This document shows positions 39,255 through 61,176 of a stretch of DNA of 64,000 bases, piece after piece. Within the stretch, counting starts at the first letter, position 1, and each line of letters opens with the position of its first letter. The position numbers and the translations under genes are program-made. The notes below the pieces were generated by a model that was not told the origin of the DNA, did not search any database, and saw only the letters and a list, made by a program, of their open reading frames with translations. The stretch is from Escherichia phage ECBP2: the sequence record NC_018859.1; one strand, given 5' to 3'.

Positions 39255-39408
39255 TAGTGAGTATGATTCCAGTTTAATCCAATCTTACAATCAGATGCAA
39301 GAGGACATTCCATCTTGAGATATTCCCCTGCTTTACGGACACACTCTTCAGTGAGAGTGCGCAGAATATTAACATCATCACGATGTACAGTGAACTGGCC
39401 TTCATCCA
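39254..39408 (-). CDS. DNA polymerase (family A, T7-like) C-terminal segment (exon 2)
   Basis: Translation DEGQFTVHRDDVNIL...KIGLNWNHTH carries the motif-C Asp-Glu and the G.NW..H terminus; not part of any ORF-track entry. Confidence 0.6.
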
Positions 39409-40013
39409 TTCAGTTATTCCCAAATTACTTCGGGTGTCGGACTATATCATAACAGCATAGCTAATTTGCTGTTGTTGGCGCTTCGAGGGTTTCCCTGTTA
39501 ACCCCCTACTCCCTTAGGATAGTCTCTACACTTTCCACTTCCGAATCCATCTACAACCGATTCCGAAGCTCACACCAAACTTCTCTGCAAGATGTACACC
39601 AGAGCATTCTGTTTCTAGCCAATAGAGCCTTGCAGCCTCTTGCCTATCTCCATTTCTTCCAGTGTTTGATTCTATTGCATGTTCTGAACCTTCAAGCATT
39701 TCTAAGTGCTCAAGATTGGAACAAGCTCTATTCTTGCATTTGTGATTTATTTCATAACCGTCAGGAATAGAACCAAAAGATTCTTCCCAAACATGCCTGT
39801 GATACATGACCCATTTGCCATCTATTACTTTTCTGAAATAACCATTTTTATTAAGTTTGTGTGAGATAGGGATGATACACCCTGTTTCGGTTGTTTCCAA
39901 AACAAGAGTTTTCTTAGCCATATCATCTCCTAATAGCTTAGCTCGGTATTGCCCTCAACTTAATGGTAGGGTTTCACCGAGTTCACCAACTTTTACATGC
40001 ACAATGAAAGTTT
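39409..40013 (-). mobile_element. putative group I intron (about 605 nt) carrying an HNH homing endonuclease ORF, inserted at polymerase motif C
   Basis: Joining the His codon ending at 40014 to GAT at 39408 gives VIDMH|DEGQF (motif C). Exon 1 ends in U and the insert ends in G, as group I splice sites require. Confidence 0.45.
39526..39921 (-). CDS. HNH homing endonuclease (intron-encoded)
   Basis: 131 aa; KWVMYHRHVWEESFG...EINHKCKNRACSNLEHLE (HNH_3-type); RBS GGAG. Confidence 0.7.
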   Translation of the reverse strand: MAKKTLVLETTETGCIIPISHKLNKNGYFRKVIDGKWVMYHRHVWEESFGSIPDGYEINHKCKNRACSNLEHLEMLEGSEHAIESNTGRNGDRQEAARLYWLETECSGVHLAEKFGVSFGIGCRWIRKWKV

Positions 40014-41705
40014 ATGCATGTCGATAACCTTCGCACAACGAACACCATCACGCTCAATCCATTTATTGAGGAATAGCATTGCATACTTCATAACAATCGC
40101 CCCAGCGCTCTGTAAGAGCGTATTTAAGGCTTTATGGACCATAACCTTTCCAGTTGCATCTCTTCTCATTGTAATACGACGTCCATCCACACCGTAGATG
40201 TATCCACTTTGTGCTTTCTCGGTCATACGTTCAATAAGGATTGCAATACAAGGATTCTCTGCTAAGAATCTTGCTCTCATAATAGCCCCTTCGTCAGAGC
40301 CACCACCTACGATACTTCCTAGTTTAGCGTCACCTGCCCCATAGTTAAAGGCATATATAAACGTCTTAGCGTTATCGCGAGTAGGAAGACCAGCAAGTTT
40401 TTGGTTATGTGAGTGAATATCTCCTTCTAAAAGAATATCTCTGTACATAACAGCAGAAGCTAGACCACGTTCAGCTTCTCGTTTCTTAGCTGGGTTGTTT
40501 TCTCGCTCTGCTTCAGCGAGCATCTCACGACATTCTTTAATAAGGTAGTGAGCTAGCATCCTCAGCTCAAGACCAGAGCCATCGTAACCTAAGAAGATTT
40601 CACGACCAGCAGGTACATAGAACTTATAGGCACCTACAGGTTTGTCTTTCTTGCCCGGTTTTCCCACTTCGTAGATAATGTTAGTACCTTTTCGTACGTA
40701 ACACCCATCAGGGATATGGTTGGTAATGATGAAAGGATAGTTATGACTATCGTCTGAGGAATAGTCAGATTGAAAAAGACTGCGGCACTCGTGACCAAAC
40801 AAACCGCGAGAAGGAATATTAACAACAATACGGTGTTTAAAACGAAATGTCGGAGTAGCGCAGCTATTAGCTTCGGCGGACAACTTACCATCTTCTCGTT
40901 CCTTGTCTATAAGACCATTAATCAAGCCAAGCCTGTGAGCCGCTACAACACGTCTCTTAAGCAAACCTCCCACACCCCCTAGCTCACCCCCAAGACCTTC
41001 TTCAAGCGTCTCCTCGAGGTTTGTAGGAGCTGTAGGCCACTTGTTTGACATGGCTAAAGCTTTCTTAATTTCATCAAAGGTTACAGGCTTCTTCCTGTTC
41101 GGATTCAAGCCTAAACCACTGACGTAGGCTTTCATGTAGTTGACAGTGTGATAACGGAAGTGTTTATCCAAGAACCGACGAATGTCAGCATCAATCATCT
41201 CAGCTGTCTGTTTTTCTTTAGCGTTTCCTCGCATCCAAGCAGAATACCAAGCAGCATATGTGCCATACTTCTTCATCGCTTTACGGATTTCGTAAGTATT
41301 CCAAGGTTTCTTGGATGTGTTCCACTCTGGAGGAATGAAGCCTTCATCCATCAAGGCTTCTTTGATACGTGCATCTTTCGATGGGTCGAAGTCTACATAC
41401 TCAACGCAAGTAAACGCCCCACCGATATCTTCTCTTTTAAGACCAACTCTGTCACAATAAAGCTGAGGCCACTTCTGTAAAGCACCTGACTTCTTAAAAG
41501 GTTTCGAATAAGTTGAACCATCCACCCGCATTTTGGGGAGGAGAGGAATCAGTTCTTTATCAATATTGACAATAATCTCTTTGAGAAGGTGAACAAACCA
41601 CCGAGCGTTTCTTCTGTGGAAGTTGACGCCATGCTTCGCCTGCTTTGAGATTATATCAGCGACTGTCATCTCCGTTATGAAAGGTAACTTATCAGGGTTA
41701 TCCAT
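40014..41705 (-). CDS. DNA polymerase (family A, T7-like) polymerase domain, exon 1
   Basis: DGSGLELRMLAHY (motif A), LPTRDNAKTFIYAFNYGAGDAKLG (motif B), HKALNTLLQSAGAIVMKY; ATG at 41705 follows AAGGAG; the uninterrupted ORF instead ends KLSLCM at 39993, losing motif C. Confidence 0.8.
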
Positions 41706-47140: not shown

Positions 47141-47707
47141 TTAGTAAGACACGTCACCACTAGAGTGGGACATGTTGCTCTTGACGAAGTAACAGAACTT
47201 GCCAAGACCTTCATTAATTTCTTGAAGCATACTCTGGTCTACTGGATAGGTGCACAAGTCTGAATCAAACTCGTCCATCTTTTCAATGATACACATCAGA
47301 GTCATGCACATGTCGGAAAGCATACCGTCCATGTCGAGATCAGCACTACCTTCTCTGAACCAAGCACAACTAAGATAGCTACTAGCTGTTGCATCCACTT
47401 TGATACAGTGATAACGCATTCGCTCAGCTACTCGGTCTCCTGTTTCACGAGCATAGTCTTCTAATTCATCGAACATACCATGAACACCTTGGAAACCAGC
47501 TCCAGAGACGTTCCAGTGGTAATTCTTTGCTTTGATGTGTAGAAGCTCAAGGTTAGCCTGCACACCGCATAGGATGTGCTCTAGACTGTTACCGCTGATC
47601 AGTTTATTCATTCCCTCAAGACGAGAGATAGAGGAGTCAGTTGTAGAGAATGGGTTACTAGAACCCACTCGTGTTAGTTCAGGTAAGTCGAAGACATTAT
47701 TATGCAT
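47141..47707 (-). CDS. Dps/ferritin-like protein (putative)
   Basis: HWNVSGAGFQGVHGMFDELEDYARETGDRVAERM parallels the Dps ferroxidase-site motif; RBS GGAGAG. Confidence 0.5.
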   Translation of the reverse strand: MHNNVFDLPELTRVGSSNPFSTTDSSISRLEGMNKLISGNSLEHILCGVQANLELLHIKAKNYHWNVSGAGFQGVHGMFDELEDYARETGDRVAERMRYHCIKVDATASSYLSCAWFREGSADLDMDGMLSDMCMTLMCIIEKMDEFDSDLCTYPVDQSMLQEINEGLGKFCYFVKSNMSHSSGDVSY

Positions 47708-48723: not shown

Positions 48724-49257
48724 TTATACACCTTTAGATGCAACTACACCTTCAGAGTTATTATAACGACCCTTCACTGCATAGGAGTGTTCCCCTGCAT
48801 GAGAGTGCTCAAACATCACCATCTGACCAACACGCATACCAGCACGAACTCGTAAGCTGTGGTTGTGAGTAACGTTATGGAATTCAAAGGTTAGCTTACT
48901 GCTATTAAACCCTGCATCAGCCCAACCAGCATGAAGGTGGTTCAAACCACAACGAGCCATTGAGGAGCGGAGTACAAACAGGCTTGAGATATTATCTGGA
49001 AGGTTAAACTCTTCCATCGAGTGAGCTAAGAAGAACTGTCCCGGAGTGATAACGATACCATCTTCAGGGATTTTTACTTCTTTCCACTTGAGGTTTTCTT
49101 TAGCATCAATGTCAACAATGCCGTCAGCCTGTTCTTCAACAAGGATAGTATCACCAATACGGATATCCACGCTAGCAGCGTTAACATATTTATGCTCCGC
49201 ATCTAAAAAGCCATTATCAATAACGCTGTGTAATTCTTGAGAACCTAAAAGACTCAT
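48724..49257 (-). CDS. dcd: dCTP deaminase / dUTPase-family protein
   Basis: SVDIRIG and RSSMARCG segments typical of the dCTP deaminase family. Confidence 0.75.
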   Translation of the reverse strand: MSLLGSQELHSVIDNGFLDAEHKYVNAASVDIRIGDTILVEEQADGIVDIDAKENLKWKEVKIPEDGIVITPGQFFLAHSMEEFNLPDNISSLFVLRSSMARCGLNHLHAGWADAGFNSSKLTFEFHNVTHNHSLRVRAGMRVGQMVMFEHSHAGEHSYAVKGRYNNSEGVVASKGV

Positions 49258-50702
49258 GAGTTTCTATTTCCTTGTACAGATGATGCCAAATTGTTAATCA
49301 TGTTGCGAGCTGTTTCACGAGATAGTGTAACACCTGCTAAGTTGTTATGAAGCTCACCAGATAGTTCACGAGCAGCAGCTCGAAGTTCTGCACCAAGTGC
49401 AGTGTCAGAGTGAGCCAGACCGTTACGACGACCGACAGGTCGAGGAGTATTGTTAGCATCATTAGCTAAAGATGGAAAATCAATACGAGCAGCTTCACGA
49501 GCCGCTATCGCTGCTACTCGATCTTCCGTAGGGGTTGGCAAATCACCAACTTCTACACGTTCTATATCACCAGCACATAGACCCTGAACAACTGAGCTTA
49601 CTGTTTCCCATGAACGATGAGAACGCTGTAAATCACCCATTGACGGAGAAGGAATAGGACGAGCAGTTCCCCCTTGAACATGCCATGTACGGTTGTGGGT
49701 GTCCGTCCCAGAAGAACGTGCACTACCAAAACTACCATTAAAAGTATTACGAGGGTCCATTGTAGAAGGGGCTGCGAATCTTGGGACTTCCTGTTGCCAA
49801 GAGTCACGTCTGTTGGTTCCCGGAGTCCAAGGTTGTGTGATTGCTTCAGCACCGATAGTGGTTAATCCACTAGACCATTCTGTCTGTAGGTTAACTTCCT
49901 CGTCCAGATAACTACGACCCCTTTCCTGAGGAATGTTTAATATAGTTTCCATCATCTTCAGGGTATAATGACGACGCTGATTCTGATATAAATTTACACC
50001 AGCCATAGGTCCAACTAAATCACTAATCAGGTGAACTTCTGGCTCACCGAAAGCTCCCATTGCAAGGTGCATATATTCGGTAGAACTGCTATAAACTGCA
50101 ACAGTTGCTTCAGGCCACTTCTTGTGAACGTACTTCATTTCACGACTAGATACCACAGGAATGTCACGAGTGTATGACATTGCAAACAAACCTTCGTTTG
50201 ACACATACAGATTACCAAGAGTCATAAACCCTTGACAGATCATAGGGAAGCGACGGCTTAAAGTATCCATATCCAAAGGTAGATTAATCATCATCTGGAT
50301 TTTAACTTGATCAATCTCAATTTCCAGAATCTCTTGGAAAGTGAAAAGCGCTTCAGCATAGGTTGTCCCGTTAACAGGCTGAATTAGTCGAGATGTAACT
50401 TGAAGCCCCTTACTCTCTGTCCAAGACAAGAAGTTGTCAAGGAACAGTGCAGCATTACTTACGTTAGCAGGGCTGTTTTCCTGACGAGTGTTCCAACGGA
50501 ATCCCCCTTGAACTAGGAAGATATCAACATCATTCGGAGTTCGATTTTGGAAGAACGTATCACGGATAGCACCACCTGCAATGACAGGATAGATACCATC
50601 AGGGACTACGTTATCTCTGATCAAATTACGAATTAGGTCAAGCCCTACACTGAGGGCTTCTCCTTCTTGAAGGTTCAATTCAGACAATGGAATCTTAATC
50701 AT
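49254..50702 (-). CDS. nucleotidyltransferase with CCA-adding/poly(A)-polymerase-type head motif and disordered C-terminal half
   Basis: GGAIRDTFFQNRTPNDVDIFL matches the GGxVRD...D.D head motif; the C-terminal ~200 aa are Ser/Arg/Gly/Thr/Ala-rich. Confidence 0.5.
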   Translation of the reverse strand: MIKIPLSELNLQEGEALSVGLDLIRNLIRDNVVPDGIYPVIAGGAIRDTFFQNRTPNDVDIFLVQGGFRWNTRQENSPANVSNAALFLDNFLSWTESKGLQVTSRLIQPVNGTTYAEALFTFQEILEIEIDQVKIQMMINLPLDMDTLSRRFPMICQGFMTLGNLYVSNEGLFAMSYTRDIPVVSSREMKYVHKKWPEATVAVYSSSTEYMHLAMGAFGEPEVHLISDLVGPMAGVNLYQNQRRHYTLKMMETILNIPQERGRSYLDEEVNLQTEWSSGLTTIGAEAITQPWTPGTNRRDSWQQEVPRFAAPSTMDPRNTFNGSFGSARSSGTDTHNRTWHVQGGTARPIPSPSMGDLQRSHRSWETVSSVVQGLCAGDIERVEVGDLPTPTEDRVAAIAAREAARIDFPSLANDANNTPRPVGRRNGLAHSDTALGAELRAAARELSGELHNNLAGVTLSRETARNMINNLASSVQGNRNS

Positions 50703-50704
50703 TT

Positions 50705-51253
50705 CTACATTTTCCAGTTGAGAGATGGGGGATTCTTATAATCAAATCCTGCCATTTGGCAAAGACACATATAAACCTTAACTGTTAAGTTAACGTCTTG
50801 CTCACAATATGTGAACATGTCTTCAGTGAATGCATCCCATGCTTCTTCCTGCTCACCATAATCACCCTTCAGCTCACCCAGAAATTCGCCCCATTGCTTG
50901 AGGCCGTGACCACGAGGGCCATGTCTTGGGTCGCCTTTGGGATATTCTGGATTGTCTCCAATACGGTCAGGCTTGAGATAACGACTCAGGCAAAGTGTAT
51001 CGAAAACATTGAAGTGGAAAGGTATTACATGAGAGTAGAATTTAAAGAGAGCTGGAAGGTCGAAGTCGATAATGTTATGACCTACAACTACATCAGCTTC
51101 TTTCAGTTTGTGAAGAGCTTCTTCAATTTGGTGAGGGCGATACCCCCACCGTTCACCTGTAAGAGCATCAAATATCCAGATACACCAGACATTTTGGATG
51201 CCCTCATAGAGATTATCACCCTCGATATCGAAGGCGAATATTTTCTTTACCAA
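50705..51253 (-). CDS. 3'-5' proofreading exonuclease (T7 DNA polymerase exo-domain-like), separate gene
   Basis: [10 protein letters not shown] (Exo I), [12 protein letters not shown] (Exo II), YCEQD (Exo III); TTG start 7 nt after GGGGAGG, overlapping the helicase stop. Confidence 0.7.
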
Positions 51254-53037
51254 GGTCGTGCCTCCCCGTCTTGTGTGAGCAGAGAAGCTGCATCCTCACC
51301 ATTGGTCAAGACAAACGGATTAGCTTCATCAACTTCATGATCTTCTCGTTCTACAAGTCGACCTGTTTCATTGATGTACTTGGTGTAGCAAACACCTGTC
51401 TGACCATAGTTACGCTCTTTGAGGAGTCGTATGATTGACAAGTTCTTGCCTAACCCATCAGCTTGCTTATCTCGTTCAAAACCAATGATGCACTGACACC
51501 AACGCATTAGTGAACGTGAACCAGTGAACTGAACCTCTTTCACCTGTCCACCTTCTTCGTGAGGAGCACCACCTGCCGGAGCATTCAAGTGAGATAATAC
51601 AAAAGCAGTGAAGTCTAATTCCTTACACATACCAGCAAGCTCTGAGGCAATCTTACTGATTTCTGTATTCACTTCAGATGGGGTTAGGTGAGAGACTAGC
51701 GCAGTGATGTTATCAAGAATGATAAACTTACACTGATTCTCGACTACCCAGAAGCGAATACACTGCTTAATATCATCCCACTCATTCTGACCGAAGTTAT
51801 CATACAAGAAGAATTTATCAGCATAACGAAGTGCTTCATCACGTAGCTGAGATTCCTCATATTCAACATCAGGTCGGTGGAAAGGTACAGATGCTGACTT
51901 ACCTGCAATGTTTTTAACAGACATGCCTACCTTCTCTTCCAAGAAGAAGCCACCACCATTAAACCCATGTTCAAGGCAAAGCCATGCTACCAGTTCGTGT
52001 GCGATCAGGGTTTTACCTGAACCAACACCACCACCGATTGCAACCATCTCTCCCCAACGAATACCGAAGGTCATTTCATTCAGAGTTTTCCACGGATAAG
52101 GAATACCCCACTCCGCTTTCTTCAGAGCATCTTCTAAACAATCAAAGACAGTAACAGCACCAGCAGGTGATTCCCGCTTCGCTGAATATTTCAGATTGTT
52201 GAATAACTCTTGACCTCGACCAGCGAGTAACATGTCATTTGCATCTTTGATTTCCTTCTCTTGACCATTGTAAGTGAAGGTTCCTTTCGGAATACGAGCA
52301 AATTTAACATGGGGGTATAATGCACGACCTTTAGTTAATGCAATCTCACCTGCATCATCATTGTCCATGCAGAGCACAATCTCCTCAAAACCATTCAAGA
52401 AGTCACGGTTACGTGAGAGAACGGAAGAGATTGAACCTGCACCAAACGGTAGAGATACACACGCAGGTTTGATGTTTGTAGCGTTCGTAAACGCAGTGAG
52501 CACATGGAAGCCAGACATACAAGAGAGTGGGTCTTCAAAGATGAAGAGCTTCTTGTTGTACACGTCACCACGTTGTGCTTGAGCCATACCGAATAGGTCA
52601 GCTTCTTTAACACTGCCGATGTAATAGAATTTCTTGCTGTCCAGAAGCTTAACTTCATAACCAACAATGTTTCCATCACGTTCACGAGGGAAGAAATAAC
52701 TATCAGGAGTTTGCCCATCCGTCTGACTTAAACCGATACGACATTCATATCGTTCAGAGACAGCTTTAGGAATCAAACGACGAGTAAGCTCGCCCTGAGG
52801 TAGCTCTAAGCAATCGTCTAAGATCTCTCGGAGTTCTTCAGGGGATAGTTCTTTCTTCTCATTCGGTGTAGGAGTTGTTCCCTTTTCGAAAACTTCATAA
52901 CTGCCACAACGATTACAACTGCCCCACTCTTCACCGGACTCTTCGTTTCGGAAGAGAATCATGTGATTGTGGGTCTTATCACGACCATGAGAGATACATT
53001 CCTTACAACCTGTATCTCCTAGGATGATCTTTGACAT
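51247..53037 (-). CDS. primase-helicase (T7 gp4-like)
   Basis: N-terminal zinc ribbon CKEC...CNRC, central TOPRIM-like region, Walker [10 protein letters not shown]; RBS AGGAGG. Confidence 0.85.
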
Positions 53038-53073: not shown

Positions 53074-53379
53074 TCAATAAAACGAACGTATTTCTTCCCA
53101 CACATCATCTTGAAGACTTTTAAAACCCTGTAAAGCTGATTGGGTTCTCATGATAAAATCTTCAGAATGTTTATTGCGGTCAAGCATACTGACAAACTTA
53201 TCATAACGGTTAATCTTCCACCGTAACTTTAAGTAATCAGACTCAAGCTTTCTCAGCTTCTGTCGCTCAATTACTGTCATCCTGTTCACCTGCCAGATAC
53301 GCTGTCCAATCACCAGATTCAACCAGAACATCTTGTTCTTCGTCGATATGATAAATCCACGCTTCCACAGTTTCACCAC
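53074..53379 (-). CDS. hypothetical protein; start probably internal
   Basis: 101-aa ORF whose 5' end overlaps the upstream gene. Confidence 0.35.
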   Translation of the reverse strand: MVKLWKRGFIISTKNKMFWLNLVIGQRIWQVNRMTVIERQKLRKLESDYLKLRWKINRYDKFVSMLDRNKHSEDFIMRTQSALQGFKSLQDDVWEEIRSFY

Positions 53380-53698
53380 TATCCAGCACTACTGGAATTA
53401 GTGTACGATTATAGAAGGTATATGGGTTGTCTTTACCACGATAACCTTCCAGACCGTCATATGGACCTTCCAGACCAGCTTGAGTTGTTTCAAACACTTC
53501 CACACGAACAGGCTTACCATTACTGTCATGTTCCAGAGATACACTTGGGAAGTATGCTGTGCAATACTGATACAGGTTACAGTTGTTTACTGTCCACCCT
53601 TCACCAATAGACACACCACCTGCACGAGCGTTGATAGCGTGGTTGTGTTGACCTTTACGAAGAGAACCATACGTTGCAACTAATACTTTATCAGACAT
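53267..53698 (-). CDS. gamma-glutamyl cyclotransferase-like (AIG2/GGCT fold) protein
   Basis: N-terminal VATYGSLRKG (YGSL motif) and downstream LEGYRG; RBS AAAGGT. Confidence 0.5.
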   Translation of the reverse strand: MSDKVLVATYGSLRKGQHNHAINARAGGVSIGEGWTVNNCNLYQYCTAYFPSVSLEHDSNGKPVRVEVFETTQAGLEGPYDGLEGYRGKDNPYTFYNRTLIPVVLDSGETVEAWIYHIDEEQDVLVESGDWTAYLAGEQDDSN

Positions 53699-53702
53699 TA
53701 CA

Positions 53703-53900
53703 TTACCTTTTGTTTAGAATTTCTTTTGTACAAGAAGTCCCGTTACACACGAGAATTGTTTGAGTTACAGAATCGACAACCGTTACATGGCTGCCACATT
53801 GAGTTATAATTTGACCTCTCCCTGAATCTTTAGAGATGCATTCATCAGCGGCGATTGCTGATACGCTGAATAAGGAGAGGAGGAGTAAAATCTTTTTCAT
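53703..53900 (-). CDS. small secreted Cys-rich protein
   Basis: Signal peptide MKKILLLLSLFSVSAIA followed by six Cys in 45 aa. Confidence 0.4.
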   Translation of the reverse strand: MKKILLLLSLFSVSAIAADECISKDSGRGQIITQCGSHVTVVDSVTQTILVCNGTSCTKEILNKR

Positions 53901-53906
53901 GACTGT

Positions 53907-54323
53907 TTACCAATCGTATAGGAAACCAGAATATCCGGAGAAAATGATTGATCGAACATCTTTTTCAGAGATTAGTTCAAAACTCTTCTTAACAGCTTCC
54001 ACAAGATCACTGTTCGACAATTCTTTTTCCTTGAACCAATACTCTTCAAAAATATCAGAGAAGGTGTAGGTTCGATATCTCTCCAAGTCATAATAATGGT
54101 CTACTGCATAGTTAATAACTCTGCTGATAGAGCTAGAAGCCACAGGGAAAAGGGAGCTGTGCTCCATAAACAGGCACCAGCGATTAAAGAGTGGTATGTC
54201 TTCATCTTTCAGAAGACTCTCTAGCTCTTCCTTTGCCTCTTTCTTATGCTTCTCAAAGAGGTTTTTGGAATACTCTACGTCTAAGATACGACTTTTAAAC
54301 ATATCCAGTTTATTATCAACCAT
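53907..54323 (-). CDS. hypothetical protein
   Basis: 138-aa ORF. Confidence 0.45.
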   Translation of the reverse strand: MVDNKLDMFKSRILDVEYSKNLFEKHKKEAKEELESLLKDEDIPLFNRWCLFMEHSSLFPVASSSISRVINYAVDHYYDLERYRTYTFSDIFEEYWFKEKELSNSDLVEAVKKSFELISEKDVRSIIFSGYSGFLYDW

Positions 54324-54379
54324 TTACAACCTCCAGTTAAATTCGAACTAGCCTCCTCTTTCGAAGAGGCTAAAGCAAA

Positions 54380-54565
54380 TTATTCTACTTCGAAGTGTTT
54401 GATCACACCAGTCAACACATCAGATTGGAATGTACCTACCAACTCCACTCCTCGGAAGAAGTTAACACTTGTTCCAAGCGATTCAAAACGCTCTGCTTGA
54501 ATATCTAGAGATTGAATATTACCTTCTGAGTTTACTGTACGAAACATGATTGTGTATTTATTCAC
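54380..54565 (-). CDS. hypothetical protein
   Basis: 61-aa ORF. Confidence 0.35.
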   Translation of the reverse strand: MNKYTIMFRTVNSEGNIQSLDIQAERFESLGTSVNFFRGVELVGTFQSDVLTGVIKHFEVE

Positions 54566-54804
54566 AGAGTTGTTACTCCCTTATCTTCTTGTGCAATTGC
54601 GATGATACGCTCAACACATTCCATTGAATATTTATCACCTCGTTTAAGGAAGGTGACAATTGCAGAGAACTGATTACCAATCATTCTCTTGTTTGTGATT
54701 CCAAACTCTTCACAGAGTTGGTTAATAGCTTTACGAGAACCAACAATCAGAGGTTCTTTTTGTTCGGTCATTCCACGACTGATCAAATCTTCGATAGACA
54801 ACAT
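54562..54804 (-). CDS. hypothetical protein
   Basis: 80-aa ORF. Confidence 0.35.
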   Translation of the reverse strand: MLSIEDLISRGMTEQKEPLIVGSRKAINQLCEEFGITNKRMIGNQFSAIVTFLKRGDKYSMECVERIIAIAQEDKGVTTL

Positions 54805-54829
54805 TACAAATTCCTTTTGTTTTTTTTAA

Positions 54830-56077
54830 TTACAGAGTTACTGCTACTTCACTACCTTCAACAGTTACAGACTCTAACTTACGAGGGTTATTAATCTGTG
54901 CTGGATGGACTGGAACGTTCCAACCACTGCGGTAGAAGTTACGACCATCGCAGAACAGAATGACATTGGCAGACATTGCATTAGGTTGCAGGTTGTTGTA
55001 AACATGACGAATATTTGCAATCCAGTAACCACGAGACAAAGTATAACCAGTAGGTGCATTACGAATAGTTTGAGTATTCATCTGACCTTCCAGTTGCATT
55101 TCTTCAGGAACCACATCAACTGAATCAACCGGTTGTGCTACTTGGCCTTCCAGTGCAAAGTTTTCATCGTCAGCACTTTCACTGTCAGCAACCAACTCAC
55201 CGTCTCCGTCTTCGATTGGAGCTTCAACAGGAGTCTGGTAAACTACTTTATACTGAGGAGTATAGAGAGGGTTTTGAGCTTTAACAAACTCAAGGATGTT
55301 GTGACGGTAGATATCCAGAGTTGTGCCAGTTAGGCCCGGTGCTGTATTAACTTCCAGTACCCATGCTTCTTGACCTTTGGTGATGATATCAACTGCACCG
55401 AAATCTAGACCCATTGATTCAACAGCTTTCACTGCGTTGATCAGAGAGGCATCGTTCGGAACGTCTGTGAAGGAACTTGAGTAAACCCAACCAGTGTGAT
55501 GGTTACGAACATCTTCACGATAGTTAGGGTCTTCACGATAACCGTTACGACGAATCTTTTTCTGAACATAGGTGATAGCACCTTTGAACACATGGACACG
55601 CCATTCACGACGTGGGCCTTGAATGCCTTTAGTGTACAGTTCAGCTCGACCAAGACCATCACCCGGTTCTACAACAACAATGCCCGAACCAGAGTGACCA
55701 GTCAGCTCATGGCGCTCATACACAATATTACCAGTGTTTGACCACTCTTGAGCAGTCTCTTGAACATCTGTGTATTCCACAGTTTTAACACCTGCTTGGC
55801 CCATCACGCTGAAAGCACGACGTTTGTTCGCTGCCATATGTAAGGCTGCGGTACGGTTAAGGACGGTTGCAGAACCAAAGAATGATTCAGGATAGCGACG
55901 GTTCCCGTAGTTAACAACCACATCACCTTCACGAGAACGCCAGCGGCTATTCTCTGAAAGAAGACCCATCACGTTAGCATTGATGCGTTCATCACGGATA
56001 GTATCACTGATAGCAGATACCAGAGCGTTAACAGAATCAGACGGGCCATACGGAAGAACACGGATACGAGTAGTCAT
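54830..56077 (-). CDS. ATP-grasp ligase (RimK/GshB-like)
   Basis: GHSGSGIVVVEPGDG and WVLEVNTAPGL segments typical of ATP-grasp enzymes; RBS AGGTA. Confidence 0.65.
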   Translation of the reverse strand: MTTRIRVLPYGPSDSVNALVSAISDTIRDERINANVMGLLSENSRWRSREGDVVVNYGNRRYPESFFGSATVLNRTAALHMAANKRRAFSVMGQAGVKTVEYTDVQETAQEWSNTGNIVYERHELTGHSGSGIVVVEPGDGLGRAELYTKGIQGPRREWRVHVFKGAITYVQKKIRRNGYREDPNYREDVRNHHTGWVYSSSFTDVPNDASLINAVKAVESMGLDFGAVDIITKGQEAWVLEVNTAPGLTGTTLDIYRHNILEFVKAQNPLYTPQYKVVYQTPVEAPIEDGDGELVADSESADDENFALEGQVAQPVDSVDVVPEEMQLEGQMNTQTIRNAPTGYTLSRGYWIANIRHVYNNLQPNAMSANVILFCDGRNFYRSGWNVPVHPAQINNPRKLESVTVEGSEVAVTL

Positions 56078-56078
56078 T

Positions 56079-56309
56079 TTAGATACCTTTTAGTTTAAGA
56101 ATTTCGTTACGACAGGATTGAATTTTAACTTCGATTGCCCAATACTCGGCGAACATTTCGTCTTCTTGGTCATCGTTTGGTGAATCAATTAGGTTGAAAG
56201 CAAACGGATACAGCTTTCGCTGCTCCGTCACCATTTGTTGAAGTCGGAGCTGTTGATACTCCAGCATTGTCAGGTGAGGCTTAGCTCCCTTGCTTGACAT
56301 GAGGCTCAA
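56079..56309 (-). CDS. hypothetical protein
   Basis: 76-aa ORF. Confidence 0.35.
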   Translation of the reverse strand: MSLMSSKGAKPHLTMLEYQQLRLQQMVTEQRKLYPFAFNLIDSPNDDQEDEMFAEYWAIEVKIQSCRNEILKLKGI

Positions 56310-56514
56310 CTTTAATCCCCTTCATTTTCACGTAGTCAGCCAACACGTTGTTAATAACGGTTGGAAAAGGGATTTCAACTGGAGAGTCAACCAGCTTCCC
56401 AATACCTTCTTGCATCCACTTCTGAATGGCTCGAAGGTTATCACATCCTGTGCTTGTCATTGGGATACGTCGAGTAGTTACAACGTTATCCAACATCAAT
56501 TTACGAACTTCCAT
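56281..56514 (-). CDS. hypothetical protein
   Basis: 77-aa ORF. Confidence 0.35.
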   Translation of the reverse strand: MEVRKLMLDNVVTTRRIPMTSTGCDNLRAIQKWMQEGIGKLVDSPVEIPFPTVINNVLADYVKMKGIKVEPHVKQGS

Positions 56515-56525
56515 AACTTCACCTC

Positions 56526-58559
56526 TTAATGTTTACCTTTACAGTAATCTGAATTACAGATCACCCTGTTTTCTTTGTTTAGTGAGCAAATTTCTGCATC
56601 ACGCCACGGAATTTGTTTATAACAGACTGCACAAAACCCAATTGAAGTCCAGAGGGCTTTTGTGAACTCAGCTGTTCGTTGTCCGTCGTAACTGACAACT
56701 GTTTTTCGGAGAGTTGTTTGCTTTTCTGGAAATGTCTCCGCTTTCTCAGCGGGCACCTCCTTTGGGGCATTCTTTGGACCATAAACAGAGATGGCATAGG
56801 TATCGCCACCACGTTTTTCCAAATAAGAGTTTGGAACATCAGACAATTCAATGTCACCAGAACGTTTAGCTGAGCTGACCATTACAATCATCCGGCTAAG
56901 CATACGCTGATCAACACGAACTGCTACTTCAGGGCGGCGTGGGTTAGTTGTGTCAACTGCTTTAGTCCAAATGTAACCTTCAGACAATGTAGTGTTAGTC
57001 ACTTTGTCTTTGATTTCTTTGGCACAGACATAACAAATGTCTTCACCACGCAGTTTACTCATTTCATTATCAAACTCGAAATCAGTTTTAACATTACCAC
57101 ACACAGCACAGACACCCAAAGGAATGTCTTCATCTTCTTCAGATGGTTTGGAGAGTGCTTCGAAACAGGCCGGATGCCAATATGCTTGGTAAGCGAACAC
57201 AGCTTTCTTAGCATCTTTCCAATCAATGTGCTTATCACAACCACCACAATCACCGTGAGAATGTGATTCCCAGAACTTACGAGTGACTTCTACACCATTC
57301 TTAGTGATGAAGGAGTCTTCTAAGTCAAAAGGGATATCATCATCAAAATCAGCGGTGGTGCTTTGAGGCTCCTTATCGGTAGCGTCAACAAACAGCCCTG
57401 AAGTTAGTACGAGGCGAATCATACTGTCCACTTCGGAGATACAAGCAACTGTCCCGCGATACACTACCTTTGGGTTTTCGAGAGCCTTCAAGTACTCACT
57501 CTTGGCTACATTATGAACATCACCCTCAACATATTCTTGAGCAGCATCATCATAAATATAACCAACCATCTTACCACGGTCAGTGTTGTTGTAAGCATGG
57601 AACTCGTGAGGGATGATATCCACACGACCATCACGACGATATGGAAGACCACGATCGGCAGCCAGTTTATTCTGATCTTCAATCGCTTTACGACGGCGAA
57701 TGTCTCCGCTTGTCACGCCGGGCTTGTCGTCTTTGTTTCCGTAAATGTCGCTTGTGCTGCTGCTTGATTTGTTTGTCTGTTGGCTCTGATATAGTGAGGA
57801 GTTCGAGTAATAGCCGCCCCAGCGACTCGTTACCGTAAAAACCGGAAGCTTGTGCTCCACCTCTTGAGTCAGAGTCATACGGTTGCCAGACAAATCAAAG
57901 ATGTATTCAGTTCCCACTTTACACTCAAAGTGATCATTGATACGGTTCTTGTGTGACTTGGAACGATTAAGAATCCACATCAACATATCTTCTTCAGAAG
58001 CACCAAACCAATCCAGACCACAACGGGCCAGATGGAAAGGACGTTCATCGTTACGAATGATATGCAGAGTATTGTCTTTGGCGTCATGCCAGATTAAAGT
58101 GAACGCACCATCCAACTTCTGGATAGTCTCTGCTGCACCAATGGTGTTGATTGAATGACAGATGTTTTCGCTATCAACTTCGAAGTTCTTATGGTCAGGT
58201 AACAGCTCTTGGTCCATCAATGTACCATTGTGAACCAGAGTAATGTCACCATGAGAGAACGGGTGAGCATTTCGAGCATTGACAGCGCCACGAGTGGCAT
58301 GTCGGCTATGACCAACAATCCACGCTGGAGGAACTACATAGTTCGTAAGCCCCTTAGTAATATTCGTGTACTCTGTCTGAAGCATGAAAGCATAAGAAGG
58401 AAGTGCTTCTTTATAAGAAAACACTCTTGCATCACTTTTACGCTGACCGAACACACCAGTTGAGTGCTGACCACGGAAGACTCCGGCATACAGAAGCTGG
58501 TTGAATACGTCTAAGTCTGTGGAGGTCATGTTGCCCCCAGCTAATACGATACCACAAAT
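56526..58559 (-). CDS. class II (Ntn-type) glutamine amidotransferase with Cys-rich zinc-ribbon C-terminal region; probable non-ATG (ATT) start
   Basis: FRGQHSTGVF, GHSRHATRGAVNARNAHPF and VHNGTL match class II motifs. The frame upstream of the first ATG (58529) reads K-I-C-G-I-V-L-A-G-G-N after a TAG, giving the canonical CGIV N-terminus with AGGTGG 8 nt upstream of ATT. Confidence 0.65.
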   Translation of the reverse strand: MCGIVLAGGNMTSTDLDVFNQLLYAGVFRGQHSTGVFGQRKSDARVFSYKEALPSYAFMLQTEYTNITKGLTNYVVPPAWIVGHSRHATRGAVNARNAHPFSHGDITLVHNGTLMDQELLPDHKNFEVDSENICHSINTIGAAETIQKLDGAFTLIWHDAKDNTLHIIRNDERPFHLARCGLDWFGASEEDMLMWILNRSKSHKNRINDHFECKVGTEYIFDLSGNRMTLTQEVEHKLPVFTVTSRWGGYYSNSSLYQSQQTNKSSSSTSDIYGNKDDKPGVTSGDIRRRKAIEDQNKLAADRGLPYRRDGRVDIIPHEFHAYNNTDRGKMVGYIYDDAAQEYVEGDVHNVAKSEYLKALENPKVVYRGTVACISEVDSMIRLVLTSGLFVDATDKEPQSTTADFDDDIPFDLEDSFITKNGVEVTRKFWESHSHGDCGGCDKHIDWKDAKKAVFAYQAYWHPACFEALSKPSEEDEDIPLGVCAVCGNVKTDFEFDNEMSKLRGEDICYVCAKEIKDKVTNTTLSEGYIWTKAVDTTNPRRPEVAVRVDQRMLSRMIVMVSSAKRSGDIELSDVPNSYLEKRGGDTYAISVYGPKNAPKEVPAEKAETFPEKQTTLRKTVVSYDGQRTAEFTKALWTSIGFCAVCYKQIPWRDAEICSLNKENRVICNSDYCKGKH

Positions 58560-58636
58560 TTTCTAATCCACCTGAAGGGTAAACCCTTTCATCTAATTAA
58601 CCTTTAAATGCGCCCTTTATCAGAGCGCCCATTGTA

Positions 58637-59737
58637 TTACAGCAGTCGTTCTAATTGCATTTCCAGATGGTCTGGAATATAACCAGTGACGTTATCATCA
58701 CTGCTACCCGATTCACGCATCAATGCAAACATGTGACGAATTTCACGAACCGTTGCGATTCGAGTGCTTTCAATCTGAGGGGTGTAATAGGTCATGATCT
58801 CTTCATAGACAGCGTTGGCATTACCACGAACATATCCCAAGAAACCATAGAAGTCACCCATATCACGCAAGTTGATAAGGACTTCACCATCAGGGCCAGT
58901 CTGTTGTACACGAACACGACCAACCAGAGTAACAGAATGTTCACGACAGAACAGAATATCACGAGCCAAACGATAACCACCAGTCAGGTCATCATCATTA
59001 GGTGTGTAGTCCAGAGGCAGATACTGAATCATAGGAGCGAAGCGTAGCTCATTCAGTTTCTCAACATATGCTTCATTGTCCAAATCTGCATACTCAACAG
59101 CCAGTTTCTTAAGAACCAAGAAGCGGTTGACCAGATTAAGGAGTTGGCTTTTCTTCCACTTTGGCTCTGAGATACGAAATTCAACAGAACCAAACTGAGC
59201 CAGAGGTAATAGGTTAAGGGAGGTGTACTTGTCCCAGCTATTAACAAGAGTATTGAAGAAGGCTTCACCATCTCGGTTGAACGCTGAGGAAGCATTCATT
59301 ACCTGTGCTTGAACAACAGCAAAGGCAGGACAGAAGTTGCTACGATAACGATGATATCCAGAACATTTGAACATCATCTTTTCATAGAACGTCCATCCAA
59401 GAATTACTTTCTTCAGGATATTACTATCAGCGTCACGCATATCCATATGAACGTGAGTAGAGCAGCGCCAAGTCCCTTCAGCTTCAGAGTCTTGTACTGC
59501 TTCACTCAGATTGTTAATAGCACTAAGCAATTCTACACCGTTGTAAGGCCGTGCACAAACCATCTCACAGCCATCACGAAGTGAACCATCTTCAGTACAG
59601 ACCCAAAGATCTGCATCAATTTCAGAGGTTCCTTCAACTTCCAGCTCGATGCCAATACCACACTGAAAAGCGATGCTTGGGTGCGGCTCAGCCAGACGAG
59701 CATTACGGTATCCAAAAACTTGTGCTACGGTTGTCAT
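58637..59737 (-). CDS. carboxylate-amine ligase (glutamine-synthetase-like, Amidoligase_2-type)
   Basis: CGIGIELEVEG, TEDGSL and CSTHVHMDMRD resemble the Glu/His ligand pattern of putative amidoligases. Confidence 0.55.
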   Translation of the reverse strand: MTTVAQVFGYRNARLAEPHPSIAFQCGIGIELEVEGTSEIDADLWVCTEDGSLRDGCEMVCARPYNGVELLSAINNLSEAVQDSEAEGTWRCSTHVHMDMRDADSNILKKVILGWTFYEKMMFKCSGYHRYRSNFCPAFAVVQAQVMNASSAFNRDGEAFFNTLVNSWDKYTSLNLLPLAQFGSVEFRISEPKWKKSQLLNLVNRFLVLKKLAVEYADLDNEAYVEKLNELRFAPMIQYLPLDYTPNDDDLTGGYRLARDILFCREHSVTLVGRVRVQQTGPDGEVLINLRDMGDFYGFLGYVRGNANAVYEEIMTYYTPQIESTRIATVREIRHMFALMRESGSSDDNVTGYIPDHLEMQLERLL

Positions 59738-60360
59738 AACGTTTCCACCAACTCTACATTATATGATGACAGATCTGAAGAAATATGCTTGAACTTCTCC
59801 AGAAGGTTTAAAGATTGACGACCATTGTCGCCGTTACCAGCAGAAAGATCAACTTGACCTACAAAAGCCCCTTTGTAGTAAACTTTACCATCAACAGGGT
59901 TAATATAGATGAAGCGAGTAACCAGACCTTCAAAGTCAGGGTTGAACAGGTTATACACCAGCTCTCCTGGAATCGAACGTCCCATTGAAGGAGGTGCACC
60001 ACGCAGCTTGTTCCCCATCAGACCCTTAGCTCGCTGACGAACAGGGTTGATATGAGTCCAGCTTACCATGTTGTTACCATGTTGCAGATAGCCCACATCT
60101 GGAGATTCCAGAATCAGGCTCTGATCAAACACAGGAATACCCTGAACAACCTGTCGCTCAAACTGCCCTTCGGAGTTCTTAGACCAGCGTTCAACTTCAA
60201 AGGTTAAGGCCATTTCGGCTTCGTGAGAGAAGTCGTCTTCCCCAAAGCGGTTTGGTTGGGTTACGTTAAGCACATACAGAGGGAGATTAATCCCTCGTTC
60301 TGCGCGTTGGGCAATCCATGTTCCGCAATAATAATGCTGAAAATCTCTTAACAGGCTCAC
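59734..60360 (-). CDS. hypothetical protein
   Basis: 208 aa; apparent GTG start after AGGTG. Confidence 0.4.
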   Translation of the reverse strand: MSLLRDFQHYYCGTWIAQRAERGINLPLYVLNVTQPNRFGEDDFSHEAEMALTFEVERWSKNSEGQFERQVVQGIPVFDQSLILESPDVGYLQHGNNMVSWTHINPVRQRAKGLMGNKLRGAPPSMGRSIPGELVYNLFNPDFEGLVTRFIYINPVDGKVYYKGAFVGQVDLSAGNGDNGRQSLNLLEKFKHISSDLSSYNVELVETL

Positions 60361-60369
60361 GATAACACC

Positions 60370-61176
60370 TTAGATAATCTGAAGTTGAGAGGAGAACTTA
60401 TCCGCTTCTTTAACATCATTGCTGTTAATGATGTTGTGAAGCTTTTCGATAGGCAAACGGGAGTGCAGAGACATGAGGATTTCCATGTCACAGCCCTGAA
60501 TAACCTTATCAACTTGATCGTAAACAAACTTACGAGTGGACTGTTCACCAATCCAGAAGTTCGACAGAGAACGATATTCAATACCGTAATCTTTATAACG
60601 AATCGCCGATGCCTTACCGTAAAGTTCTTTACGACGAGTGTCCTTGTCCATCACAACCGCTGGAAGTGACAGGAAGTAATCGCACAGCACACCCAGCATC
60701 ATCTGAGTCTGACGACTAATTTCCAGTGTACCAGTAACACCGAGGTGAACGTGACCTCCAGCGGTACGCAGACCTTTGTCTGTCGCTACCGGAGATGGGT
60801 TTTTCTGACCAGTGAAGGCGTTGAAATCAGGAGTACAGCCAAATACGAAGGCTGACGGGTGGAATGATTCCAGCTCTTCAGCAGTATACACATGAGAGCT
60901 AATCCCAAGCGCAGCTTCCATACCACGTTCATGGAGAACTTTGTTGGTCAGATCAATACCACGCTGGATGTTATCATCAAACGCTTCAAACCCTTTCTGT
61001 GGGTTAATATCAAATTCAGCCAGAACGTTGTCTTCTTGAAGACGAACATCAGGGGCCAGATCGATTTTGTTATCTTTAGAACAGCCCAGCTTACCAGCCA
61101 CAGAGGTGATAACACCAGAAGCAGTACGAACAAACATTTCAGGGTCAGAACCAATAAGGAAAGCACGCTTAGTCAT
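60370..61176 (-). CDS. second carboxylate-amine ligase-like protein (COOH-NH2 ligase-type, putative)
   Basis: FLIGSDPEMFV and AGGHVHLG echo the G.E.E ... H.H pattern of the neighbouring ligase; ATG at 61176 overlaps the upstream stop (ORF-track start at 61221 is a GTG). Confidence 0.45.
   Translation of the reverse strand: MTKRAFLIGSDPEMFVRTASGVITSVAGKLGCSKDNKIDLAPDVRLQEDNVLAEFDINPQKGFEAFDDNIQRGIDLTNKVLHERGMEAALGISSHVYTAEELESFHPSAFVFGCTPDFNAFTGQKNPSPVATDKGLRTAGGHVHLGVTGTLEISRQTQMMLGVLCDYFLSLPAVVMDKDTRRKELYGKASAIRYKDYGIEYRSLSNFWIGEQSTRKFVYDQVDKVIQGCDMEILMSLHSRLPIEKLHNIINSNDVKEADKFSSQLQII

Follow-up and report, generated by a model that had tools for sequence, protein, structure and literature searches.

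What does a stand-alone nucleotidyltransferase (NTase) do inside the replication block of a coliphage, and what are we to make of its extreme divergence between neighbours that hardly change? The question is raised by a gene on the minus strand of a 64,000-nucleotide stretch of Escherichia phage ECBP2 (NC_018859.1; hereafter, the 64-kb window), a phiEco32-like podophage of the SU7 type (Gordonclarkvirinae, Suseptimavirus-like) that, in the region examined, shares 90–95% nucleotide identity with TH43, Bas88, and SU7. The gene is an open reading frame (ORF) of 482 amino acids (aa) plus stop codon, with an ATG start, at 49254..50702. An initial annotation, made from the sequence alone, described its product as an NTase with the head motif of tRNA CCA-adding enzymes and poly(A) polymerases, fused to a long disordered tail, and thought that it might repair host tRNA 3' ends cut by defence systems or add tails to RNAs. 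Judging from sequence profiles and a structural model, the product is a stand-alone NTase of the Pol-beta superfamily with a head derived from the class II (CCA-adding/poly(A) polymerase) lineage, and the same lines of evidence indicate that it cannot be a canonical CCA-adding enzyme. Profile comparisons place its family in a phage-restricted superfamily of head-only NTases that includes the anti-Gabija protein Gad2. The NTase is also by far the most divergent element of a gene block that is otherwise 76–96% conserved, with the break in conservation lying directly behind the catalytic DxD. Our preferred reading, to which we give a probability of about 0.4, is that the protein, a head-only NTase of class II descent within the Gad2-like phage superfamily, would be catalytically active and serve in phage–host conflict. 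The features of the gene on which the argument draws are:

49254..50702, minus strand: NTase ORF, 482 aa plus stop codon (full-length match to phrog_12715)
49854..50702, minus strand: confidently folded catalytic core, aa 1–283, a predicted Pol-beta-type NTase head plus a small alpha/beta C-terminal subdomain (model confidence, fold matches)
50523..50576, minus strand: motif A, aa 43–60, with the GGAIRD helix N-cap and the DVD catalytic carboxylates (family alignment; aligns with class II motif A)
50331..50333, minus strand: E124 in predicted strand 122–130, candidate third metal-binding carboxylate (D/E in 25/25 family members)
50295..50297, minus strand: invariant Q136 in the IQxM strand (counterpart I[NQ]xI in phrog_1614-type proteins and IQ[LM]I in Gad2)
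50235..50249, minus strand: FPMIC segment, aa 152–156, with invariant P153 (aligns with FDxxICQ of phrog_1614-type proteins and FDFTVC of Gad2)
50112..50144, minus strand: RE..Y..KKWP helix, aa 187–197, with invariant Y191 and K195 and position 188 always D/E (counterpart of the class II motif D helix, lacking EDxxR)
49225..50517, minus strand: hypervariable segment (nucleotide homology lost against Kuravirus SU10 and two metagenomic relatives)
49257..49853, minus strand: C-terminal tail, aa 284–482, predicted disordered and R/S/A/G/T-rich (model confidence, composition)
49278..49400, minus strand: predicted helices 435–454 and 462–475 at the tail end (structure prediction, substitution rates)

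The ORF product contains VIAGGAIRDTFFQNRTPNDVDIFL at aa 41–64, and the pattern GGx[VIL]RD-x6-16-DxD has a single match in the six-frame translation of the window (50523–50576, minus strand), compared to a chance expectation of 0.005 matches per shuffled window. The ORF and the GGxVRD...D.D-type motif of the initial annotation were borne out, as GGAIRD...DVD is unique in the six frames and its residues are invariant in all 25 members of the family alignment described below. The protein matches phrog_12715 ('nucleotidyltransferase') almost end to end (E = 1.6e-177; aa 1–475 on profile positions 1–456/457). Single-sequence searches with it gave no match in Pfam (E <= 1), NCBIfam, PADLOC, or the PDB (phmmer), and a word-indexed homologue search returned only relatives that are at least 85% identical. 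When aa 1–300 were searched with HMMER against 1.84 billion cluster representatives, only 30 proteins were recovered; the family alignment comprises 25 of these 30, which are 21–37% identical to the query. The 3044-aa metagenomic protein P0046, which matched query aa 102–167 in 15 stretches (E = 6e-9), was left out of the family. It is built of ~30 tandem, Cys-containing repeats of ~66 aa, and its match is probably an artefact of composition or repeats that has nothing to do with the NTase fold. Conservation across the family defines a core of aa 1–215, in which 14 residues are invariant, among them G43, G44, R47, D48, D58, D60, F62, Y115, I125, Q136, P153, Y191, and K195, and positions 96, 124, and 188 are acidic in every member.

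An AlphaFold2 model built from a 33-sequence alignment is confident over aa 1–283 (predicted local distance difference test, pLDDT, mostly 84–96) and of low confidence over aa 284–482. The modelled core contains the hallmark elements of Pol-beta-type NTases (strand 37–42, helix 44–51, and strand 58–65), and structure searches returned hundreds of NTase-fold matches. In Foldseek searches of the PDB, class II enzymes ranked first (E about 1e-4), with CCA-adding enzymes and poly(A) polymerase as the best matches, at overall TM-scores of only 0.19–0.31. Among viral predicted structures, the nearest after the Kuravirus orthologue were head-only NTases of 167–254 aa, mostly from T7-like phages. The initial annotation had named the absence of an NTase fold, or loss of the catalytic carboxylates on alignment, as grounds for giving it up; the predicted fold and the aligned DxD carboxylates both stand. 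The cGAS/DncV-like (CD-NTase) families that it had suggested searching gave no fold or profile match (PADLOC/Pfam). The orthologue in Kuravirus SU10 was detected by mass spectrometry (PMC4281155), and the invariant residues point to a small and apparently active NTase.

Profile–profile comparisons (hhalign) connect the family to head-only NTases of the phrog_1614 type in other phages and, through them, to Gad2. The phrog_1614-type set comprised P0058, Percy gp13, AchV4 gp39, tf gp45, Lo5R7ANS gp33, and a protein of Aeromonas phage 1233, and the Gad2 sequences came from Yirmiya et al. (bioRxiv 10.1101/2023.05.01.538930, Supplementary Table 10) and included the experimentally verified homologue of a Brevibacillus laterosporus prophage. 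The ECBP2 NTase profile aligned with the phrog_1614-type set at 98% probability (E = 1.8e-13, 173 columns) and with authentic Gad2 at 90.8% (E = 1.2e-6, 103 columns), and the phrog_1614-type set aligned with Gad2 at 96.4% (E = 1.1e-9, 117 columns). The phrog_1614 hidden Markov model (HMM) matched three family members at 1e-7 to 5e-9 over about 100–120 aa, and the ECBP2 protein itself at 4.5e-6 over aa 32–74 only. Two further observations point the same way. The family member P0033 has a weak precomputed match to Pfam PF26128 ('Gad2'), and P0058, which has a precomputed PF26128 match, was retrieved by the family profile (our Pfam copy, which lacks PF26128, gave only PF01743 for P0058). Scans of IMG/VR found three loci for the NTase family and none for P0058. 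Given these profile links and the nearest viral structures, we regard the family as a divergent branch of a phage-specific, class II-derived superfamily of head-only NTases. Gad2 is the only member of this superfamily with a known phenotype: phage SPbetaL7 needs it to overcome Gabija, and its expression is toxic (bioRxiv 10.1101/2023.05.01.538930). Its mechanism is still unknown (PMC12904381). A related case is Emajogi gp22, an NTase whose gene adjoins that of a primase/helicase; it is toxic at high induction, and its homologues carry a Gad2-family annotation in some phages.

Compared to this phage superfamily, the class II enzymes themselves are more distant. The family profile matched a class II CCA enzyme in the PDB at E = 0.002, mainly through motif A. 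The ECBP2 NTase profile aligned with E. coli Cca over 23 columns of motif A and with a joint Cca/PcnB profile (A7) over 29 columns at 20% probability, ending after motif A; against E. coli Cca or PcnB singly, it gave motif A only or nothing. The Cca/PcnB profile is shallow, because the class II homologue search returned only sequences >70% identical to E. coli Cca. The PolyA_pol head HMM (PF01743), another check proposed at the outset, scored the N-terminal 300 aa at 12.2 bits, below the gathering cut-off of 23; the model was touched weakly by 18 of the 25 family members, none at gathering score (best E = 2.5e-4, 21.8 bits). The invariant columns of the 25-member alignment form neither an RRD (motif B) nor an EDxxR (motif D). 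In class II enzymes, the motif B Asp senses the ribose 2'-OH. The phrog_1614-type set aligned with Cca/PcnB at 97.1% probability (E = 5.4e-11, 138 columns, including motif B and the motif D helix), and Gad2 aligned with it at 48.8% (E = 1.8e-4, 168 columns), with FDFTVC pairing with RRDLTINA. Chained from the ECBP2 NTase through the phrog_1614-type set to Cca/PcnB, these alignments place the invariant P153 at the Asp of the class II RRD and the Y191/K195 helix at EDxxR. The motif B Asp would thus be replaced by Pro, since FPMIC leads to FDxxICQ/FDFTVC and from there to RRDLTINA in the chained alignments.

The remainder of a class II enzyme is also missing. Class II enzymes hold tRNA with all-helical neck, body, and tail domains, which are absent here; aa 145–283 are of mixed alpha/beta structure, and many family members are only 274–300 aa long, ending right behind the core. 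The initial annotation had set the tail apart from canonical CCA enzymes; in the model, the conserved core of ~215 aa is followed by a mixed alpha/beta region and then by a tail of low pLDDT. It had the superfamily and the catalytic motif right; CCA-type tRNA repair is not supported, given the loss of motifs B and D and of the tRNA-binding domains.

The divergence of the NTase sets it apart from every gene around it. Compared to Kuravirus SU10, the primase/helicase is 94% identical, the exonuclease subunit 80%, the dCTP deaminase (DCD) 95%, and two genes further downstream 81% and 93%, whereas the NTase is 32% identical over 283 aa with tails that cannot be aligned. Across eight other lineages compared to this phage, identities were 80–94% for the helicase, 76–96% for DCD, and 27–35% for the NTase; the exonuclease subunit (55–80% between lineages) is more diverged than helicase or DCD. 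In all-against-all comparison, the NTase cores show 30–43% identity in every pair, even where DCD is at 92–96%. At the nucleotide level, homology to SU10 covers the helicase and exonuclease genes and extends ~185 nt into the NTase gene (motif A and DxD); it stops at about 50518 and resumes ~30 nt inside the DCD gene at about 49224. The only Kuravirus nucleotide homology within the variable segment is a 45-nt island over the KKWP helix.

Within the SU7 type, the difference is far smaller. Among nine SU7-type genomes, the ratio of nonsynonymous to synonymous substitution rates (dN/dS) was 0.03 each for helicase, exonuclease, and DCD and 0.095 for the NTase core, and dN of the core was only about 3x that of DCD, compared to a >20-fold excess of NTase divergence between types. 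Steady drift is therefore a poorer explanation of the gap between types than alleles that are long-lived or have been exchanged. This is the pattern seen in genes for host interaction, and it is difficult to square with an enzyme whose substrate does not vary, be it tRNA, dNTPs, or the replisome.

Tails of 80–199 aa were found only in seven alleles from E. coli-phage-like lineages and in none of the ~280-aa members, and the ECBP2 tail is lineage-specific in that it cannot be aligned with Kuravirus tails. It is hydrophilic and net neutral (A12 R11 S10 G9 T8 N8 P7%; grand average of hydropathy –0.69), with pLDDT <50 at aa 284–440 and four predicted helices within aa 284–482. The ~200-residue tail had been described as low-complexity and probably disordered. 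The predicted disorder held, while the composition, biased as it is, has an entropy of 3.9 bits and is neither repetitive nor truly low-complexity, and the tail contains helices and a conserved end. Among close SU7-type relatives, it is prone to insertions and deletions at aa 300–345 and invariant over its last ~25 residues; dN/dS in the same nine genomes was 0.33 for the whole tail, 0.37 for the middle, and 0.20 for the end, consistent with purifying selection. The tail is a real, translated, and constrained region. Its invariant terminal ~25 residues suggest a partner-binding element, and the tail is most likely a flexible tether that ends in such an element.

The gene lies third in a conserved block of four, all on the minus strand, in the order primase/helicase, exonuclease subunit, NTase, and DCD, with gaps or overlaps of 7, 2, and 4 nt. 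Its neighbours are:

51247..53037, minus strand: T7 gp4-type primase/helicase, first gene of the conserved four-gene block
50705..51253, minus strand: stand-alone Pol A-type 3'-5' exonuclease subunit, upstream neighbour
48724..49257, minus strand: DCD (PF22769, E = 1.5e-34), downstream neighbour

The NTase start lies 2 nt past the exonuclease stop and its stop overlaps the DCD start (ATGA, 49254–49257), which suggests translational coupling of the exonuclease, NTase, and DCD genes. A simple promoter and terminator scan showed nothing notable inside the NTase gene. The NTase gene was found in 96 phage records (tblastn), and the same four-gene order occurs in every family member with a readable contig, down to 27% NTase identity. 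Relatives of the phrog_1614 type in unrelated phages (Autographiviridae, Casjensviridae, and Krylovvirus; contexts inspected in Percy, AchV4, tf, Lo5R7ANS, and Aeromonas phage 1233) adjoin genes for primase/helicase, Pol I, 5'-3' exonuclease, endonuclease I, or dUTPase, an association of head-only NTases with replication genes for which our literature searches found no publication discussing it. The module also includes, in all relatives examined, a gene for a ferritin/Dps-like protein (47141–47707, minus strand; PF00210, E = 2e-7; phrog_3636 'DNA binding protein').

The family A DNA polymerase of this phage is split, with the 182-aa exonuclease subunit standing alone and the polymerase subunit encoded about 9 kb away. 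The idea that the NTase is the missing replicase beside an orphan exonuclease subunit was ruled out by this separate Pol A polymerase subunit (Bas88_0041; about 39257–41705 in the window). The polymerase-subunit gene is itself interrupted: residues 1–564 of the Bas88 orthologue correspond to 41705–40014 and residues 565–614 to 39406–39257 (minus strand). The intervening ~600-bp insert, absent from Bas88, holds an HNH-type endonuclease ORF (39526–39921, 131 aa), and the break falls at '...VIDMH|DEGQF...', where HDE resembles, by eye, Pol A catalytic motif C. The arrangement suggests that a homing endonuclease or group I intron has inserted here; Rfam at gathering threshold found no intron model in the window.

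No tRNA gene was found in the window by ARAGORN, as the initial annotation had stated, and Rfam found no RNA family. This absence is partly an edge effect, because a relative's tRNA maps just beyond the window end: Bas88 encodes one tRNA-Arg(UCU) (19050–19126 in Bas88 locus L003), about 16 kb further on; projected onto the window, it would fall near 66.6 kb, ~2.6 kb past the end. The Bas88 tRNA encodes its own ACCA 3' end, which rules out a phage tRNA in need of CCA synthesis.

How, then, might the NTase act? In the reading that we prefer, the enzyme would take a nucleoside monophosphate from an NTP or dNTP and attach it, without a template, to an acceptor hydroxyl, most plausibly that of a nucleic-acid 3' end. 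Its role would lie in phage–host conflict, as counter-defence or as escape from recognition, rather than in tRNA CCA repair or nucleotide supply, and the NTase would be tethered to a partner by its disordered tail, which is specific to the lineage and ends in conserved helices. The counter-defence role proposed in the initial annotation stays viable through kinship with Gad2, though not by way of tRNA repair. Several points weigh against such a role. Essentially all relatives have the gene, always at the same site and with apparent translational coupling to replication genes, as one would expect of a core function rather than of an anti-defence gene of the usual accessory kind. At conserved positions, the ECBP2 NTase and Gad2 do not agree (GGAIRD vs GGxITS; FP vs FDFT), the direct hhalign link to Gad2 covers only 103 columns at 91%, and the Gad2 analogy would supply a phenotype rather than a mechanism. 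E124 is only a candidate for the third catalytic carboxylate, from its conservation and the predicted strand 122–130. Mean dN/dS is <1 everywhere, so positive selection is not demonstrated, and PADLOC, which models defence systems and not anti-defence proteins, gave no match.

A narrower version of this reading is, in our judgement, a long shot. In it, this Gad2-superfamily protein would be diversifying as a counter-defence enzyme and, lacking the ribose-sensing Asp, would work as a template-independent terminal transferase that uses dNTPs. By capping or extending the 3' ends of linear phage DNA or of replication intermediates, it would conceal these ends from defences that sense ends or nick DNA, such as Gabija, and each allele and tail would be suited to evading or binding a different host factor. 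Were this true, it would be the first mechanism for Gad2-like proteins, and it might contribute to the resistance of Gordonclarkvirinae to DNA-targeting immunity.

Among the alternatives, an accessory role at the replisome is unlikely, though less so than the others: the protein would be a terminal (deoxy)nucleotidyltransferase working with the split Pol A and the primase/helicase, adding untemplated nucleotides to DNA 3' ends or primers in replication or in the processing of linear genome ends, with its tail docked on the replisome. It would account for the tightly packed helicase, exonuclease, NTase, and DCD genes, whose order is universal across lineages down to 27% NTase identity, for the presence of the gene in essentially all relatives, and for the head-only NTases of unrelated phages that also lie beside primase/helicase, Pol I, or exonuclease genes. 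The greater divergence of the exonuclease subunit (55–80%) compared to helicase and DCD could reflect co-evolution with the NTase; however, exonuclease dN/dS within the SU7 type is as low as that of the helicase (0.03). With partners so highly conserved (helicase 94%), a docking protein at 32% identity with non-homologous tails is hard to explain, and many T7-type phages replicate without such a gene. Anti-defence genes occur in T7 replication modules too; T7 gp5.9 is one of them. Still less probable is an NTase acting on tRNA or RNA 3' ends (CCA-adding, A-adding, or poly(A)-like), which would either mend tRNAs damaged by host nucleases that attack the anticodon or the acceptor end, or tail RNAs. 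The invariant Pro in place of the motif B Asp, the lack of a conserved RRD or EDxxR, and the absent neck, body, and tail domains all speak against it. The tRNA-Arg of the lineage encodes ACCA and E. coli already has Cca; an invariant substrate would not predict 30–43% identity beside flanking genes at 92–96%, and the constant site of the gene is in a block for DNA replication and dNTP metabolism.

The authors of the BASEL study proposed that NTase and DCD take part in covalent modification of phage DNA, for example with deoxyuridine (dU) in place of thymidine (dT), which would explain the resistance of Gordonclarkvirinae to restriction–modification (RM). They singled out the conserved dCTP deaminase and NTase locus in phages that resist RM strongly without known modification or anti-restriction genes (PMC11990801). 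The adjacency of NTase and DCD is strict, with the ATGA overlap in the window, and loss of the motif B Asp, as read from the profile alignments, could permit the use of dNTPs. We nevertheless find the proposal rather doubtful. The window also encodes ThyX, a deoxynucleoside monophosphate (dNMP) kinase, and thioredoxin, and with these DCD is simply explained as a source of dTTP for a genome of 42% GC. Phages with dU-DNA destroy dT nucleotides, and none of the three characterised dU-DNA pathways uses a Pol-beta NTase (PMC12697855). The dU version is unlikely, because ThyX, dNMP kinase, and thioredoxin are present and dU-DNA phages destroy thymidine nucleotides without an NTase. More generally, no Pol-beta NTase was found in any characterised modification pathway in the literature that we reviewed, these genomes are routinely sequenced, and an invariant nucleotide or DNA substrate predicts conservation near the 95% of DCD, not 32%. 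Elsewhere in the window, a conserved cluster at 53270–61176 (minus strand; 96–98% identical to Bas88) encodes a gamma-glutamyl cyclotransferase, an ATP-grasp enzyme, a GFAT-like glutamine amidotransferase, an amidoligase, and a COOH-NH2 ligase. It looks like a peptide- or amide-ligation system and, given the reported RM resistance (PMC11990801), may suit a modification pathway better than the NTase does. There is, finally, a very slim chance that the protein is a catalytically dead NTase fold kept as a scaffold or binding protein. Its third carboxylate is not securely placed, in that HMMER pairs the Glu of the IEVTTFR strand in a class II CCA-adding enzyme (PDB 6ibp) with Q101, not with E124; we take this Glu to be the third catalytic carboxylate, by way of E79 of the Bacillus stearothermophilus enzyme. 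In addition, invariant Q136 and P153 replace residues that are polar or acidic in relatives. Against these points, GG, R47, D48, D58, and D60 are strictly invariant at 21–37% identity and three positions are always acidic, as expected of a working active site, and conservation at the nucleotide level lies precisely over the motif A segment.

The gene is a member of a known though uncharacterised kind. It has been annotated as a nucleotidyltransferase since the SU10 paper of 2014 (PMC4281155), the locus was discussed in the BASEL paper of 2025 (PMC11990801), and proteins 85–99% identical stand in GenBank/RefSeq and Pharokka-style records under the same name, the family being PHROG 12715. The novelty of the gene as such is low, because it is already catalogued and discussed in print. 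What is added here is that a canonical CCA role was tested and excluded, that homology links the family to head-only NTases and through them to Gad2, and that the NTase is hypervariable within a conserved replication block, with a break point directly past DxD. Hypervariability and the Gad2 link make the NTase a reasonable experimental target. If the counter-defence reading is true, the function of Gad2-like NTases could be worked out in E. coli with the genetically tractable coliphages Bas86–88 and SU7, where natural alleles are plentiful and their surroundings isogenic; the same system could test the BASEL idea that DNA modification by this locus lies behind RM resistance.

The class II CCA-adding enzymes and poly(A) polymerase (PF01743 plus PF12627) have motif A, GGxVRD-x(n)-DxD, in common with the ECBP2 NTase (aa 43–60), but are folded proteins of about 350–470 aa with neck, body, and tail, compared to a conserved core of ~215 aa. 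The phrog_1614-type proteins (Caulobacter phage Percy gp13, Pseudomonas phage tf gp45, and Mesorhizobium phage Lo5R7ANS gp33), some of whose relatives carry the annotation 'Gabija anti-defense Gad2 family' (PF26128), are homologous to it over the whole core. Both share GGxxRD, DxD, the I[QN]xI strand, F[DP]xxC, and the K.P helix, as well as a core of about 200–280 aa and a site inside T7-type replication modules. They differ in that an invariant Asp (FD; D166 in the phrog_1614-type alignment, D107 in Gad2) is Pro (P153) in 25/25 members of the ECBP2 family, which also has an extra long helix (aa 78–98) separating the DxD strand from the sheet strands that follow, and to which the E. coli-phage lineages, unlike the phrog_1614-type, add a disordered tail of 80–199 aa. 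The phrog_1614-type still aligns with class II motifs B–D, whereas the ECBP2 NTase aligns with class II at motif A only.

Gad2 itself (Bacillus phage SPbetaL7 ORF_159) is likewise a phage NTase-fold protein, in which an N-terminal NTase is followed by about 200 residues. Its profile match with the ECBP2 NTase spans motif A/DxD, the IQxI strand, and the FDFTVC/FPMIC segment, although Gad2 has GG[AT]ITS in place of GGAIRD and keeps the FDFT Asp. The C-terminal half is folded in Gad2 and predicted to be disordered here, and Gad2 is located in an anti-defence island of SPbeta-like phages, in contrast to the replication operon of ECBP2. Anti-Gabija activity was shown experimentally for Gad2. A looser likeness is to the MenT/AbiEii-type toxins, which, like the ECBP2 NTase, are small Pol-beta-fold NTases that act without dedicated tRNA-binding domains; relatives are toxic on overexpression.

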